Source: an uncultured archaeon
Lineage (GTDB): Archaea > Aenigmatarchaeota > Aenigmatarchaeia > QMZP01 > QMZT01
Direction of reading: 5' to 3'
Assembly: GCA_964441265.1 (NCBI GenBank)
Contig: CAYYKJ010000003.1
Location: 23,428 to 87,427 of the forward strand
Length of the DNA stretch: 64,000 nt
Shown here: positions 56,696 to 60,734 of the stretch, piece after piece
How the letters are laid out: every line of letters begins with the position of its first letter
Numbering within the stretch: the first letter of the stretch is position 1
Position numbers and translations under genes: made by a program
The notes under the pieces: generated by a model
What the model was told of the DNA's origin: nothing
Database searches by the model: none
Seen by the model: only the letters and a program-made list of their open reading frames with translations

Positions 56696-56828
56696 CTAAA
56701 TTAAGTATTTAAAGTTTATGGTTGAGACGGTATAAATATCCGTTTTAAAGCTATTTTTTTAGTATTTTGACGAAAAAAACACTAAAAAGGACATGATGAG
56801 AGAAGAAAAACCGGATGGAGATCGCATT

Positions 56829-56940
56829 TCCCTTTTGGTCCCACGCTTTTGTCGGGAAAAGGAAAAGCGTGGAGTGGAAGCGGTCAGCTCCCTTTTGGTC
56901 CCACGCTTTTGTCGGGAAAAGGAAAAGCGTGGAGTGGAAG
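56829..56940. repeat. Two identical tandem copies of a 52-bp unit (period 60 bp, 8-bp spacer). Each unit contains a 10-bp-stem hairpin.
   Basis: tcccttttggtcccacgcttttgtcgggaaaaggaaaagcgtggagtggaag occurs twice. The internal palindrome is CCACGCTTTT/AAAAGCGTGG. Confidence 0.6.
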
Positions 56941-56946
56941 AATGAA

Positions 56947-57181
56947 TGGGCCCGACGGGAATTCCGAACAGCGGATCCCTTCTTTTGGGATCTCCTTCCT
57001 TTCGGAAGGGCTGATTCGAACCCGCGACTCCCGGATGTCTTTCTGTCATCCGCCCGTGAGGGCGTCAGCATACTTTTATGCCCAGATAAAAGTTTCACAC
57101 GTCCAGGAAAAACCCGAGTTTCCTTGGAAACCGGTGCTCTAATCCCCATCCTCGGGGGATTCCAGGCTGAGCTACGAGCCC
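56947..57181 (-). tRNA. tRNA-Trp(CCA)-like gene, 235 nt, with predicted introns in the D-loop (20 nt), the anticodon loop (about 90 nt) and the T-loop (about 53 nt)
   Basis: GGGCTCG-TA-GCTC-AGCCTGG[AATCCCCCGAGGATGGGGAT]TA-GAGC-A-CCGGT-TTCCAA|...|TCCGG-GAGTC-GCGGG-TTCGAAT|...|CCCGT-CGGGCCC-A. Removing the 20 nt restores a canonical D-arm. The T-stem pairs GCGGG/CCCGU. The acceptor pairs GGGCTCG/CGGGCCC. The 31:39 pair is U-U, so the anticodon-stem junction is uncertain. Confidence 0.4.
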
Positions 57182-57183
57182 AA

Positions 57184-57255
57184 CGCCTCGGCCGGGATTT
57201 GAACCCGGGTCCTGGGAGTGACAGTCCCAGATGATAACCACTACACTACCGAAGC
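57184..57255 (-). tRNA. tRNA-Asp(GUC), 72 nt, no encoded CCA
   Basis: GCTTCGG-TA-GTGT-AGTGGTTA-TCAT-C-TGGGA-CTGTCAC-TCCCA-GGAC-CCGGG-TTCAAAT-CCCGG-CCGAGGC-G. Only 2 nt separate it from the downstream Trp-like gene. The D-stem has one mismatch. Confidence 0.75.
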
Positions 57256-57327
57256 ATTAATTCCGGACTGACTGATGTCTTCTTTATTTATTTACAAATT
57301 TAAATATATTCTTATTCGTGGTTTCTT

Positions 57328-57678
57328 ATGGAAGACAGGCTGGAGACGATGTTCAGGGAACAGGAAAAACTGGACGATTACATAAGAAAATCAAGGGAAA
57401 AGCAGGGATCAGGATACCAGTATTCGGAGAAGGAATGGATAGACAGGCTCACCACCGCCATGATAGAGGAAGCGATGGAGATAAAGGAACATTCCGACTG
57501 GAAATGGTGGAAGAAGCCCATGGATTTCAGCAGGGAGGATCTCAAGGAGGAACTGGCCGATCTCCTCCATTTCTGGCTGTCCCTGTGCCTGAAGCTGGGA
57601 TTGACCCCCGAAGAAATGTTCGAGAAGTACATGAAAAAGAACCGCAAGAACGCCGAGAGGCAGGACAGGGGGTATTGA
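57328..57678 (+). CDS. MazG-like nucleotide pyrophosphohydrolase (dimeric dUTPase-like)
   Basis: EEAMEIKE...E...EELADLLHF all-alpha NTP-PPase motifs. 116 aa. Confidence 0.65.
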   Translation: MEDRLETMFREQEKLDDYIRKSREKQGSGYQYSEKEWIDRLTTAMIEEAMEIKEHSDWKWWKKPMDFSREDLKEELADLLHFWLSLCLKLGLTPEEMFEKYMKKNRKNAERQDRGY

Positions 57679-57712
57679 CAATATCTCTTGGTTCACGAAG
57701 ATATTTATCAAA

Positions 57713-59434
57713 TTATCCGTGTTTTTCGTGCTTTGGGTGCTCATGTTTCATTTTGGTTCTCGTTTTCAAATGATTGATGTGATTCGTTTTCTCTTTAAGA
57801 AATCCATTTAAATTCATACCGTACTTGGATATAAGCGTTGAAGCATGCTGACCTCCTAAAAAATACGGCATTAAAACGTACGTTGCCCCGTTTTCGTACA
57901 ATTTAAGTGCCTCGTCAATTTGATGGCACACGATTATTACTATTGAGTCTTTGTTGGATTCTCTCACCTTTTTTATCAGCAGCAAACTGGTTTCAACGTC
58001 GGGGATTGTTGAAATTATCATTTTTGTTCTTGAGAAATCCAGTTTATTCAACAAATCTATGTCATTAGCATCGCCATATCTGCATTCATAACCCTCACTC
58101 GCAAGCTTGGTGATCACTTCGGGATCATAATCGACAATGAGAAACTTCTTCTTGAGATTCTTGATGGAACCCAGCAGGCTGAAACCTATCCTGTCATATC
58201 CGAACAAAATGATGTTATATTTTTTGCCCTCGTGGTGAATATGTTCATCGATTTTTCTTCCTCTTCTTTCAAAAATACCAAGATATTTGGAAATATGAGA
58301 ATATAATTTGTTTGAGTGCATTATCATATATGTGGAGCCAAGGATTGTCATCAGTCCTATCGCAGTCACCATCGACAGTATTTCATTTGAAACATGGCCC
58401 ATTTTCACTCCCAGGGCCACCACTATGAGGGAAAACTCGCTTATTTGGGCCACGGTCAATCCGGCCATAAACCCGTTCCGTTTCGTGTATTTGAGCAGGC
58501 CCATCAGAATCATCACTATGAGCGGGTTTCCCACCAGAACGAATGCTGAAAAAACCGCAACAGGGAGCAGAAACTCTGAAATGTTCACGAAAATCATCTG
58601 GGACCCGAGCAAAACAAAAAAGAAAAGGATGAAGAAGTCCCTGAGCACGTTCATTTTTAATTTAATTTCATAGTGGTAGGGAGATATGGACAGTGATATT
58701 CCCGCAAGCAACGCCCCGATTTCTATTGACAGGTTCAAATAATCGAAAGCAACAGCCAGCAATAACAGCCATCCTATAGAAAAGAGTAATAAAAATTCCT
58801 GATATCTGCTGATTGCTTCAGTAATTCTGGGCAAGACAAAAATGCTGAACACTGAAATGAATGCCAATATCCCTGCTCCGATGAAAATATTCTCTACGGT
58901 AAGCGTTAGAATATCAAATCCGCTTGTGAAAGAGGATATCATCATTAAAATTATTATTGCGGTCACATCCTGCACAATGAGAAAACCCACTGATATCCTG
59001 CCGTAAAGGGTCTGCAGATCGCCTTTGTCCGAAAGGAGTTTCACGATAATTATAGTGCTGCTGAAGGTCAGAGCTATAGCAACATAGAGGGCAGTGATAT
59101 CAGAAAAACCAAAGAATTTTGAAATAAAAAAACCTATAATGGTGGTGAATAATATTTGACCTACTCCCGTTATGAGAGAAACCTTTCCAACGTTCTTCAT
59201 CACCTTCGGGTTCAGGCTGAGCCCTGCAATAAACAAAAGGAAAACCACCCCGAACTGGGAAAGAGTCGCTACTATGTCAGCGGACTTGACAATATTCAGA
59301 AACAGGGGCCCCGCAACAATACCTGTGATTATGTAACCTACTATGAGGGGTTGTCTAAGCAGTTTCATAAGTCCGGAGACAAAAACAGCAAGAATGATAA
59401 TTAAGCTTATCTCGATAAACATGCTTTCAATCAT
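57713..59434 (-). CDS. CPA2-family K+/H+ antiporter (Kef-type) with a C-terminal RCK/KTN domain
   Basis: About 12 TM helices and a TrkA-N-like domain (ILFGYDRIGFSL...DANDIDLLNKL). Confidence 0.75.
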   Translation of the reverse strand: MIESMFIEISLIIILAVFVSGLMKLLRQPLIVGYIITGIVAGPLFLNIVKSADIVATLSQFGVVFLLFIAGLSLNPKVMKNVGKVSLITGVGQILFTTIIGFFISKFFGFSDITALYVAIALTFSSTIIIVKLLSDKGDLQTLYGRISVGFLIVQDVTAIIILMMISSFTSGFDILTLTVENIFIGAGILAFISVFSIFVLPRITEAISRYQEFLLLFSIGWLLLLAVAFDYLNLSIEIGALLAGISLSISPYHYEIKLKMNVLRDFFILFFFVLLGSQMIFVNISEFLLPVAVFSAFVLVGNPLIVMILMGLLKYTKRNGFMAGLTVAQISEFSLIVVALGVKMGHVSNEILSMVTAIGLMTILGSTYMIMHSNKLYSHISKYLGIFERRGRKIDEHIHHEGKKYNIILFGYDRIGFSLLGSIKNLKKKFLIVDYDPEVITKLASEGYECRYGDANDIDLLNKLDFSRTKMIISTIPDVETSLLLIKKVRESNKDSIVIIVCHQIDEALKLYENGATYVLMPYFLGGQHASTLISKYGMNLNGFLKEKTNHINHLKTRTKMKHEHPKHEKHG

Positions 59435-59448
59435 TCACAAACCTCAAA

Positions 59449-59868
59449 TTACTTTTTTGCTTTAACCAGTCCGTACACCAATTCGAATGCATCAAGCTCA
59501 CCGACAAGTTTCCCCTTTTCGCACACAGGTATGTCCTGAATCTTGAAAACCTTGGCTACCCTCAGAGCGTCCTCCAGATCATCATCCAGCGTTACAGTTT
59601 CAGGCTCAATCATCACATCTTTTGCCGTTTTTATGGCCTTCTTTCCGAGAAAAAAAATAATCTTATTCGGACCTATGTCAGGTCTTACGCATTTAAATAT
59701 TTCATTGGTCGTTATTACGCCGATTAGTTTATTGGAATTGCCCACTACGTATACGTTTCTCCTTCCTCTGTCTTTAATGAAAATATCTATAACTTTGTCT
59801 ATTGGTTTGTCCGGATTTACTGTTTTTACTTTATCTGAAAACGCCCTATAAACATCCCCCACTTTCAT
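59449..59868 (-). CDS. CBS-pair domain protein
   Basis: Two CBS motifs (VYVVGNSNKLIGVIT...; VCEKGKLVGELD). 139 aa. Confidence 0.7.
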   Translation of the reverse strand: MKVGDVYRAFSDKVKTVNPDKPIDKVIDIFIKDRGRRNVYVVGNSNKLIGVITTNEIFKCVRPDIGPNKIIFFLGKKAIKTAKDVMIEPETVTLDDDLEDALRVAKVFKIQDIPVCEKGKLVGELDAFELVYGLVKAKK

Positions 59869-60544: not shown

Positions 60545-60712
60545 GGGAGCAGCGTTCTGGATTTCCCACCTATCACCGCCGAAAGAAACAGGCACGCCTG
60601 TTTCCTGCGAAACCCGAAACCTCCGGTTTCGGCAGTAATTCCCAGACCGCGGGGAGTCTTAACTTCTGTGTTCGAAATGGGAACAGGTGATCCCTCCCGC
60701 TTTGGCCGCTCG
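60545..60712 (-). rRNA. rrf: 5S rRNA, orphan gene, with an extended helix IV region (about 165-170 nt)
   Basis: Minus strand GAGCGGCCAAAGCGGGAGGGAUCACCUGUUCCCAUUUCGAACACAGAAGUUAAGACUCCCCGCGGUCUGGGAAUUACUGCC... aligns to archaeal 5S helices I-III, loop C and loop E (compare GCGGCCAUAGCGG...CCCAUCCCGAACACGGAAGAUAAGCC...AGUACUG). Helix V closes as GCGGUCUGG/CCAGAACGC and helix I as GAGCGGC/GCUGCUC. About 45 extra nt lie between the loop E strands. Confidence 0.6.
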
Positions 60713-60734
60713 ATATTCTAATTGCCGGGCAAGG

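Follow-up and report, generated by a model that had tools for sequence, protein, structure and literature searches.

Archaeal tRNA genes hold up to three introns, according to the paper that describes tRNAscan-SE 2.0 (PMC8450103, 2021). Genes with several introns are known from the Thermoproteales (Pyrobaculum, Thermofilum) and the Thaumarchaeota, where protein-spliced introns with bulge-helix-bulge (BHB) motifs, some of them relaxed, are located at 37/38, in the D-loop, in the anticodon stem and in the T-loop. These introns can be so crowded that one must leave before the motif of the next one can form (PMC8450103), and their presence or absence differs among related species. Here we describe a 64-kb window from a Candidatus Aenigmatarchaeota (DPANN) archaeon, which is all the DNA of the source genome that was examined, and in particular a tRNA-Asp gene and the interrupted tRNA gene that follows it, both on the minus strand. 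The interrupted gene, of 235 nucleotides (nt; 57181..56947), resembles those of the Thermoproteales and Thaumarchaeota in all the properties just listed. Unlike them, with their maximum of three introns, it is predicted to have four, as do at least seven of its orthologues; moreover, its lineage belongs to DPANN and not to TACK, and one of its exons, only 7 nt long, holds the entire anticodon. Four introns would be one more than the published maximum that we found for any tRNA gene, and a search of the literature returned neither a four-intron tRNA gene nor tRNA introns in Aenigmatarchaeota.

Disrupted tRNA genes are also found within the same superphylum, in ARMAN-2/Micrarchaeota, Nanoarchaeum, and the Woese- and Pacearchaeota. 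The non-canonical and multiple introns of DPANN have been tied to endonuclease variants that accept relaxed motifs, namely epsilon2 and alpha4 with the L3 loop (PMC5829648, PMC3239211). A 2018 survey linked the DPANN alpha4 endonucleases with an extra loop to a larger number of disrupted tRNA genes, and noted incomplete tRNA sets in DPANN (PMC5829648). That survey did not include Aenigmatarchaeota, and the locus described here has no split or permuted arrangement. The nuclear tRNA genes of the red alga Cyanidioschyzon merolae include ectopic and multiple BHB introns in the D-arm, at 37/38 and in the T-loop, as does the gene in the window, with up to three introns per gene and an ordered removal demonstrated by reverse transcription PCR (PMC3728597). 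This organism differs in being a eukaryote, in not exceeding three introns, and in having no anticodon-stem intron that generates a micro-exon.

We read the locus as a tRNA-Asp(GUC) gene followed by a tRNA-Lys(UUU) gene in five exons, separated by four putative protein-spliced BHB-type introns, upstream of rpoH-rpoB''-rpoB'-rpoA', and we assign to this reading a probability of about 0.8. The coordinates of all the features are shown in Table 1.

Table 1. Predicted features of the tRNA-Asp/tRNA-Lys locus (positions in the window), and tRNA genes of related loci with guide-like introns (positions in each locus)
Feature	Position	Strand	Remarks
TATA-like element TATATTTAAAT	57298..57308	−	about 48 nt upstream of the tRNA-Asp 5' end; read from the sequence
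tRNA-Asp(GUC)	57184..57255	−	72 nt, intronless, no encoded CCA; ARAGORN; Rfam RF00005, 60.9 bits, E 1e-10
Spacer	57182..57183	−	2 nt, UU (TT in the DNA), from tRNA-Asp nt 73 to tRNA-Lys nt 1
Exon 1	57162..57181	−	nt 1-19: acceptor 5' strand, D-stem 5' strand, D-loop to G19; base-by-base parse and spliced alignment
Intron 1	57142..57161	−	20 nt, D-loop, 19/20
Exon 2	57131..57141	−	nt 20-30
Intron 2	57094..57130	−	37 nt, anticodon stem 5' strand, 30/31
Exon 3	57087..57093	−	7-nt micro-exon ACUUUUA, nt 31-37, anticodon UUU
Intron 3	57037..57086	−	50 nt, canonical site 37/38
Antisense element AUAAAAGU in intron 3	57072..57079	−	8 bp with A31-A37 and the first intron nucleotide
Kink-turn (K-turn)-like (box D'/C'-like) module in intron 3	57046..57068	−	CUGA, stem CGCCC/GGGCG, loop UCAC, GAU-GA; 3 nt after the antisense element
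Exon 4	57015..57036	−	nt 38-59
Intron 4	56961..57014	−	54 nt, T-loop, 59/60
Exon 5	56947..56960	−	nt 60-73, discriminator A73, no encoded CCA (UUC next)
tRNA-Tyr genes with guide-like introns	L008:2144-2285, L009:1934-2107, L014:449-589		
tRNA-Lys(CUU) genes with guide-like introns	L004:2804-3073, L005:3396-3583, L012:3230-3490, L017:2236-2445		

Exon-intron structure and splice motifs

The RpoB'' sequence encoded in the window matched 74 loci (numbered here L001 onwards) at 61-89% identity in a collection of species-representative genomes, and where the record titles name a taxon it is nearly always Candidatus Aenigmatarchaeota. A homologue of the interrupted tRNA is present in 43 of the 75 sequences formed by these loci and the window. 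In the loci inspected it is located upstream of rpoH, in front of the rpoH-rpoB operon, and is preceded by tRNA-Asp where the latter was detected.

The interrupted gene starts at 57181 with GGGCUCG-UA-GCUC-AGCCUGG, which is a perfect tRNA 5' end, and ends at 56947 with CCCGU-CGGGCCC-A. Its exons, of 20, 11, 7, 22, and 14 nt, join into a product of 74 nt. The insertions interrupt what would otherwise be a canonical tRNA, and their precise removal is predicted to restore the cloverleaf. The original prediction, which was made from the window sequence, had described the gene as a tRNA-Trp with three introns, and its coordinates and most of what it observed in the sequence are retained. The acceptor strands GGGCUCG and CGGGCCC pair; the 20-nt insertion in the D-loop is confirmed, since its excision gives GCUC-AGCCUGGUA-GAGC, which is the uninterrupted D-arm of L037 and L057; and the T-arm is split as GCGGG-UUCGAA|U-CCCGU by an insertion of 54 nt, which had been estimated at about 53 nt. 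The segment of about 90 nt that was described as intron-like is indeed inserted, but it is made up of the rest of a 37-nt intron, the 7-nt exon ACUUUUA and a 50-nt intron. The number of introns must be raised accordingly from three to four, located at 19/20, 30/31, 37/38, and 59/60. The T-arm GCGGGUUCGAAUCCCGU is uninterrupted in L001, L016, L050, and L062, and each of introns 1, 2, and 4 is missing from some orthologues, with matching junctions. The 235-nt precursor has a predicted folding energy of -102.3 kcal/mol (z = -4.29), with none of 200 shuffled sequences being as stable, and the minimum-energy fold includes the acceptor stem, the D-stem and the T-stem.

A BHB motif, which had been proposed as a check on each junction, can be drawn for every intron, in a strict form for intron 3 and in relaxed forms for introns 1, 2, and 4. 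In the strict form a 4-bp helix lies between two 3-nt bulges that hold the splice sites, and relaxed forms keep one bulge or more and two helices. Intron 3 conforms to the hBHBh' structure, with a central helix CUUU/AAAG paired at 4/4 positions, bulges UA|U and AC|A, and a 3-bp inner helix CUG/CAG. Its outer helix is the anticodon stem CCGGA/UCCGG, which has 5 bp after the removal of intron 2 and 1 bp while intron 2 is present. This intron was found in all 37 orthologues aligned, 24 of them with a 4/4 central helix. The motif of intron 1 consists of the central helix GCCU/GGGG (3/4), bulges GG|A and AU|U, and an inner helix AUCC/GGAU, while the outer helix is the 4-bp D-stem beyond an A.A mismatch. 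The homologous D-loop introns of L001 and L003 are longer (60 and 48 nt, respectively) and their central helix, GCCU/GGGC, is paired at 4/4 positions. In intron 2, nucleotides 25-28 (CACC) form a 3/4 central helix with UGUG, the bulges are GG|U and AA|A31, and the outer helix consists of four pairs between nucleotides 21-24 and 32-35, the former being also those that would compete for the D-stem. The 30/31 intron is present in 22 orthologues, 18 of which have a perfect 4-bp central helix (CACC/GGUG where it was read by eye), and absent from L008, L010, L011, L016, and L044. Intron 4 has the 5-bp T-stem as outer helix, a central helix UUCG/CGGA (4/4) and a clean 3' bulge AU|U; a 2-nt offset of the inner helix, CAGC/GCUG, makes the motif relaxed at the 5' site. 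An intron in the T-arm is found in 27 orthologues, most at 59/60 after a boundary shift and three at 53/54.

The orthologues were compared in a spliced alignment of 37 genes, including that of the window, guided by a Lys(UUU) template that scores sequence and not pairing; the pairing statistics were calculated on the 24 distinct spliced sequences. One intron is found in 6 of these genes, two in 10, three in 13, and four in 8 (window, L002, L003, L031, L049, L052, L064, and L070), and L058 is probably a ninth gene with four introns. The insertion sites converge on 19/20 (also 15/16, 20/21, and 22/23), 30/31, 37/38, and 59/60 (also 53/54). A total of 97 introns were placed in the 37 genes. A central helix and an outer helix of at least 3 bp each were found in 77% of them, compared to 3.5% of random placements of the same length, and a perfect central helix in 65% compared to 4%. 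Across 24 species the mean exon identity is 91%, and 99.4% of the cells of the spliced cloverleaf are paired. Eight cloverleaf pairs have changed on both sides, a covariation reached by none of 500 shuffles, and pair 31:39 is formed in 24/24 sequences (G-C in 18 and A-U in 6).

Identity of the interrupted tRNA and alternative readings

The comparison with orthologues indicates that the interrupted gene is a tRNA-Lys(UUU) gene, and that CUUUUAA is the real anticodon loop of the predicted product. When the spliced 74-mer was analysed by ARAGORN it was identified as tRNA-Lys(ttt) with a perfect anticodon stem, CCGGA/UCCGG. Orthologues L008, L010, L011, and L016, in which the 30/31 intron is absent, have the structure GAGC-A-CCAGA-CUUUUA|intron|A-UCUGG, with no further sequence separating the D-arm from the anticodon loop. 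These four genes, together with L069, were identified by the intron mode of ARAGORN as tRNA-Lys(ttt) with one canonical intron, and two of them matched the Rfam tRNA family along its full length (59.5 bits for L008 and 57.0 bits for L010). The window shares with the single-intron orthologues the sequence ACUUUUA and the intron that follows it, but has 37 extra bases between G30 and A31. The sequence [A/G]CUUUUA is invariant in 38/38 orthologues, and in the clade of the window both ACUUUUA and its partner within the intron are invariant. Of the 37 spliced orthologue products, 36 were called Lys(ttt) by ARAGORN. The 5' half of the gene is nearly identical to the intronless tRNA-Lys(CUU) gene at L044:101-177. 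The predicted product has, in summary, a C-U-UUU-A-A loop conserved among orthologues, on a 5-bp stem and in a Lys-type body.

Several observations weigh against a five-exon tRNA-Lys gene, and they are considered here with the alternatives that they may favour. After removal of only the D-loop and T-loop introns, the intron mode of ARAGORN gives tRNA-Trp(cca) i(39,87), which corresponds to a tRNA-Trp(CCA) with three introns, 20 nt in the D-loop, 87 nt at 37/38 after UUCCAA, and about 53 nt in the T-loop. The program also accepts the fully spliced 74-mer as Trp, and a 'UCCA' follows CCGGU(U/A) in three of the four closest genes (window, L002, and L003). The original assignment to Trp was therefore reasonable, as a single-sequence run of ARAGORN leads to the same answer, and only comparative evidence settles the choice. 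This evidence, together with the splice motifs, makes the Trp identity highly improbable. The sequence TTCCAA, taken originally for the loop with the CCA anticodon, is present in the window, but it is located at the top of a hairpin (UUUCC..GGAAA) inside intron 2. The CC belongs to the conserved stem UUUCC/GGAAA of this hairpin, whose loop changes from AA in the window to UUAG in L001 and AUUU in L002. The supposed anticodon loop varies as well (UUCCAAG in the window, UUCCUUA in L001, UUCCAUU in L002, and AUCCAAU in L003), and the supposed anticodon reads CCA in the window, CCU with U37 in L001, and CCA with U37 in L002. Instead of a conserved Y-U-CCA-R-N loop on a 5-bp stem, the orthologues offer a segment that is entirely missing in L008, L010, L011, and L016, genes that carry only the CUUUUA loop and are called Lys. 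The 87-nt intron would have no BHB motif, its central helix UUCC/AAAG being paired at 2/4 positions with an adjacent U.U and no inner helix, and pair 31:39 would be a U.U mismatch. This mismatch, a concern already in the original prediction, disappears with the excision of the 37-nt intron, which restores A31-U39. Finally, the invariant ACUUUUA and the perfect CUUU/AAAG motif would be left unexplained. A related proposal, that alternative splicing of the anticodon region allows one gene to give rise to either tRNA-Lys(UUU) or tRNA-Trp(CCA), draws on the acceptance of both splice products by ARAGORN and on locus L044, in which a Lys-type loop is accompanied by a perfect Trp-type CUCCAAA immediately next to the anticodon-stem 3' strand. 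L044 also fits the tRNA-Lys reading poorly, in that the one-step Lys splice motif fails and ARAGORN reports Trp(cca). Nevertheless, the CCA of the window clade is not conserved and has no splice motif, neither reading of L044 has a clean one-step motif, and a heptamer resembling a Y-U-NNN-R loop is expected by chance at a frequency of about 1/16. The two Trp-like loops are, furthermore, non-homologous, since they are located at the 5' end of intron 2 in the window and at the 3' end of intron 3 in L044. We consider a gene with two products extremely improbable.

The remaining difficulties concern the gene as it stands in the window. In the raw sequence, ARAGORN, run with default parameters and also allowing introns up to 300 nt with lowered thresholds, reported only tRNA-Asp, and the same was true of Rfam both at the gathering score and at E values up to 10. 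Three of the four splice motifs (introns 1, 2, and 4) are imperfect or relaxed: there is a G.G in the central helix of intron 1 and a C28.U mismatch in that of intron 2, and the 5' site of intron 4, AA|U, is located in an internal loop instead of a clean 3-nt bulge. In addition, the Lys(UUU) template biases the finding of exons toward Lys, a bias from which the pairing statistics are free. The failure of both programs and the imperfect motifs could also be the signs of a decaying pseudogene, no longer processed and replaced by an intact tRNA-Lys(UUU) elsewhere. However, pseudogenes do not maintain an exon identity such as that observed across 24 species, or the nearly complete pairing with its eight compensated pairs; in addition, eight species-level genomes share the synteny and all four intron sites, the splice geometry greatly exceeds chance expectation, and covariation extends to structure internal to the introns. 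Decay is accordingly very unlikely. Doubts about intron 1 lead to another alternative, in which the 20-nt D-loop hairpin is retained in the mature tRNA and the true introns are three. The motif of this intron is the weakest of the four, it folds most stably into a simple hairpin of 7 bp (AAUCCCC/GGGGAUU), which competes with the BHB motif, and D-arm introns ranked lowest in the survey, with a central helix of 2 bp or less in 5/11. On the other hand, an insertion between G19 and U20 would leave a D-loop of 29 nt where the orthologues have 8-10 nt, the longer insertions of L001 and L003 at this place have perfect GCCU/GGGC helices, and the identical D-loop is found uninterrupted in two other loci. 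Retention of the hairpin seems, on this evidence, quite improbable, and we continue with the five-exon tRNA-Lys(UUU) gene.

The gene in L044 (L044:523-660; CP070801.1, a complete chromosome) deserves separate description. It has the Lys-type loop and a guide-like element in its intron, which ends in ...GGUGUG-CUCCAAA immediately before the 3' strand of the anticodon stem. All pairs of splice sites were tried at this locus and no clean Lys or Trp motif was found. The Trp-type loop could be due to chance, to a nested intron or to a change of identity.

A possible guide in intron 3

The only published precedent that we found for a tRNA intron acting on its own tRNA is that of pre-tRNA-Trp, the intron of which guides the formation of Cm34 and Um39 (PMC11408192, PMC4090602). 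Intron 3 shares with it the location at 37/38, the complementarity to its own anticodon arm, an adjacent box D-like element that could form a K-turn, and a putative guide fold that excludes the splicing fold, as the antisense hairpin and the splicing fold of intron 3 cannot form at the same time. It differs in that the host is tRNA-Lys (tRNA-Tyr in relatives), in the presence of one K-turn-like motif (D'-stem-C') versus C/D plus C'/D' motifs, in the predicted target, C32, in the linker of 3 nt between the duplex and the box, and in the lack of a match to the Rfam C/D families. In box C/D guides, box C (RUGAUGA) and box D (CUGA) pair as a K-turn, there is a second C'/D' motif, and an antisense element of 8 nt or more directly precedes box D/D', with the target opposite the fifth nucleotide before the box.

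The antisense pairing shows covariation in the 38 sequences on which it was counted: nucleotide 31 and its partner form G-C in 32 and A-U in 6, and the first intron nucleotide and its partner form A-U in 28 and U-A in 8. In the family, the stem that abuts an NNNA box and NNU-GA has a mean length of 5.2 bp, compared to 1.8 bp in shuffled sequences, and is at least 5 bp long in 63% of the sequences, compared to 6% of the shuffles. The sequences of these stems diverge widely among species, and their 100% pairing is partly circular because the stems were selected by pairing. The layout resembles a box D'/C' K-turn with a guide in front of it; C32 is paired with the fifth nucleotide before CUGA and would therefore be the target, and the duplex begins only at N4 owing to the 3-nt linker.

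Similar features were found, in a cleaner form, in other tRNA genes of these loci (Table 1). In the three tRNA-Tyr introns (3/3) a terminal stem and a C-like box (GGUGAUU/UGUGACU) are accompanied by a guide-like stretch of 8 nt, which is separated by 1 nt from an NNGA box. The guide-like stretch of the four tRNA-Lys(CUU) introns (4/4) is likewise 8 nt long and 1 nt away from NNGA, and a stem and UGU-GA come after this box. In all seven introns this stretch is complementary to nucleotides ~36-43 of its own pre-tRNA, and position 39 is paired with the fifth nucleotide before NNGA. It is possible, although we regard it as doubtful, that intron 3 is a box C/D-like guide for the 2'-O-methylation of C32, acting before or after its excision. 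We propose as tentatively, and at about the same level of confidence, that the canonical introns of tRNA-Lys(UUU), tRNA-Lys(CUU) and tRNA-Tyr in Aenigmatarchaeota may be box C/D-like guides directed to their own tRNAs. Through the D-like box, fibrillarin would be brought to C32 (or U34) in tRNA-Lys(UUU) and, in tRNA-Lys(CUU) and tRNA-Tyr, to position 39, and in each case the guide and splicing folds would be mutually exclusive.

Some properties of the introns argue against a guide. The window gene has a single K-turn-like motif and no second C'/D' motif was found in it. In many orthologues the D'-like box is degenerate, and position 2n is a G in about 13/38. The linker is 3 nt long in most Lys(UUU) introns and 1 nt in five, in which the target would become U34 instead of C32. 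In L057 the 'GA' covaries with a hairpin loop within the splicing fold, and a search of the intron against the Rfam C/D families at E values up to 10 returned no match. A motif scan of the 64-kb window for fibrillarin, Nop5 and L7Ae returned none of them, a result that is uninformative for the rest of the genome.

Two other candidate structures were rejected. A K-turn in intron 2, suggested by G30-A, a hairpin and GGU-GA in many orthologues, can be explained as a by-product of the splice motif, with GGUG paired to C25-C28 and the A residues forming the bulge, and this feature is missing from the window clade. A complete C/D RNA extending across introns 2 and 3 (C-like GUGAAG/GUGAUGG, D', C', and D) was abandoned when box D was not found, and the single D'/C'-like module was kept.

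Proposed processing, surroundings and significance

The tRNA-Asp of the original prediction was identified by both ARAGORN and Rfam, and the tRNA-like gene does start only 2 nt after it, following the TT at 57183-57182. This tight spacing to a multi-intron archaeal tRNA agrees with the description of the two as a dicistronic pair, and they are probably co-transcribed because the gap is too small for a promoter. The TATA-like element, the putative common promoter of tRNA-Asp and tRNA-Lys, belongs to a block of 38 nt (ATATATTTAAATTTGTAAATAAATAAAGAAGACATCAG) that L001 shares without a single difference. The spacer has 2 nt also in L001 and about 30-80 nt in other orthologues. In the proposed processing, one TATA-like promoter would drive both tRNAs, which would be separated by RNase P and tRNase Z. 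The splicing endonuclease (EndA) would cut at eight sites, an RtcB-type ligase would join the exons, and CCA would be added post-transcriptionally, after exon joining. Splicing is probably ordered, with intron 2 leaving before intron 3, because the 5-bp anticodon stem that serves as the outer helix of intron 3 becomes continuous only after intron 2 has been removed. An endonuclease of broad specificity would be expected because three of the four motifs are relaxed. A six-frame scan of the 64-kb window for one RtcB motif (HSGSR) found none, which is uninformative for the genome.

Introns were also observed in the tRNA-Asp genes of close relatives: in the T-loop in L001 (L001:1943-2052) and L002 (L002:3109-3215), while that of L003 (L003:~2174-2330) has a long insertion 3' of the anticodon. 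Since tRNA-Asp is intronless in the window yet interrupted in L001-L003, the turnover of introns appears to be fast even at 85-89% RpoB'' identity. The T-loop intron of tRNA-Lys in L043 (L043:2439-3132) is about 500 nt long, unusual for a protein-spliced tRNA intron, and includes two copies of the internal repeat GCCCCCUUAAAGCAUUAUUCCCCG. In L003, L010, and L012, short hairpin modules are found in introns and in the Asp-Lys spacer, for example GACGCAUA...UAUGCGUC and GAAGCUUYCAAAAAGCUUC, and across genomes such modules recur in introns and intergenic spacers alike. The antisense hairpin of intron 3 carries one of them in its loop in L058, L059, and L072. This distribution suggests that mobile mini-hairpins may populate tRNA introns.

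The region of the window that follows the tRNA-Lys 3' end, up to a T-rich stretch upstream of rpoH, includes two tandem copies of a 60-nt unit (56821-56940, minus strand; 60 nt, then 52 nt that are identical). Each unit consists of a 10-bp hairpin, CCACGCUUUU...AAAAGCGUGG, followed by CCAAAAGGGAGCUGACCGCUUCC. A hairpin related to this unit is found immediately downstream of tRNA-Lys in L006, and the motif CAAAAGGAGC...GCUUCC reappears within the T-loop introns of L028 and L036. The repeat might represent a terminator, a 3' trailer element or a module that derives from an intron. The possibility that it is a mobile element that seeds introns was rejected, as there are only two copies in 64 kb and one or two weak matches in the 74 loci.

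Downstream of the tRNA pair and on the same strand are rpoH, a split rpoB (B'' and B') and rpoA'. The 5S rRNA gene is located by itself at 60602-60713 (minus strand; 46.4 bits), about 3.3 kb from tRNA-Asp, with three open reading frames (ORFs) in between (57328-59868); in L008, L010, and L014 the 5S gene is found about 90-130 nt upstream of tRNA-Asp. A weak match to sR3, an archaeal C/D-box family, at 59560-59620 (minus strand; 22.8 bits versus a gathering score of 41, E = 0.12) falls within the 139-amino acid ORF at 59449-59868 and is probably due to chance.

The interrupted tRNA first noted in this window is thus a real feature of the sequence, more extreme than originally described, and would be notable for its number of introns, its micro-exon, its lineage and its possible self-targeting guide. 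ARAGORN and Rfam miss the raw gene and ARAGORN can call it Trp, so that tRNA-Lys(UUU) could be reported as missing, or with the wrong isotype, in the annotation of Aenigmatarchaeota and perhaps of other DPANN genomes, and estimates of genome completeness and of decoding capacity would be skewed as a result. To make this essential tRNA would take eight cuts and four ligations, in organisms whose genomes are regarded as minimal. The 37 orthologues, with one to four introns at fixed sites and with clear presence or absence of each, are well suited to testing which substrates the DPANN endonucleases accept and in which order they cut, and the family informs on the gain and loss of tRNA introns. 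If the guide proposal were correct, it would explain why the 37/38 intron is kept in 37/37 genes while the other three come and go, and would show why selection preserves the canonical intron. The family would then add a second, independent case of introns that modify their own tRNA, and what is now a single known example, in the pre-tRNA-Trp of Euryarchaeota, would become a strategy used throughout a phylum of reduced-genome archaea.

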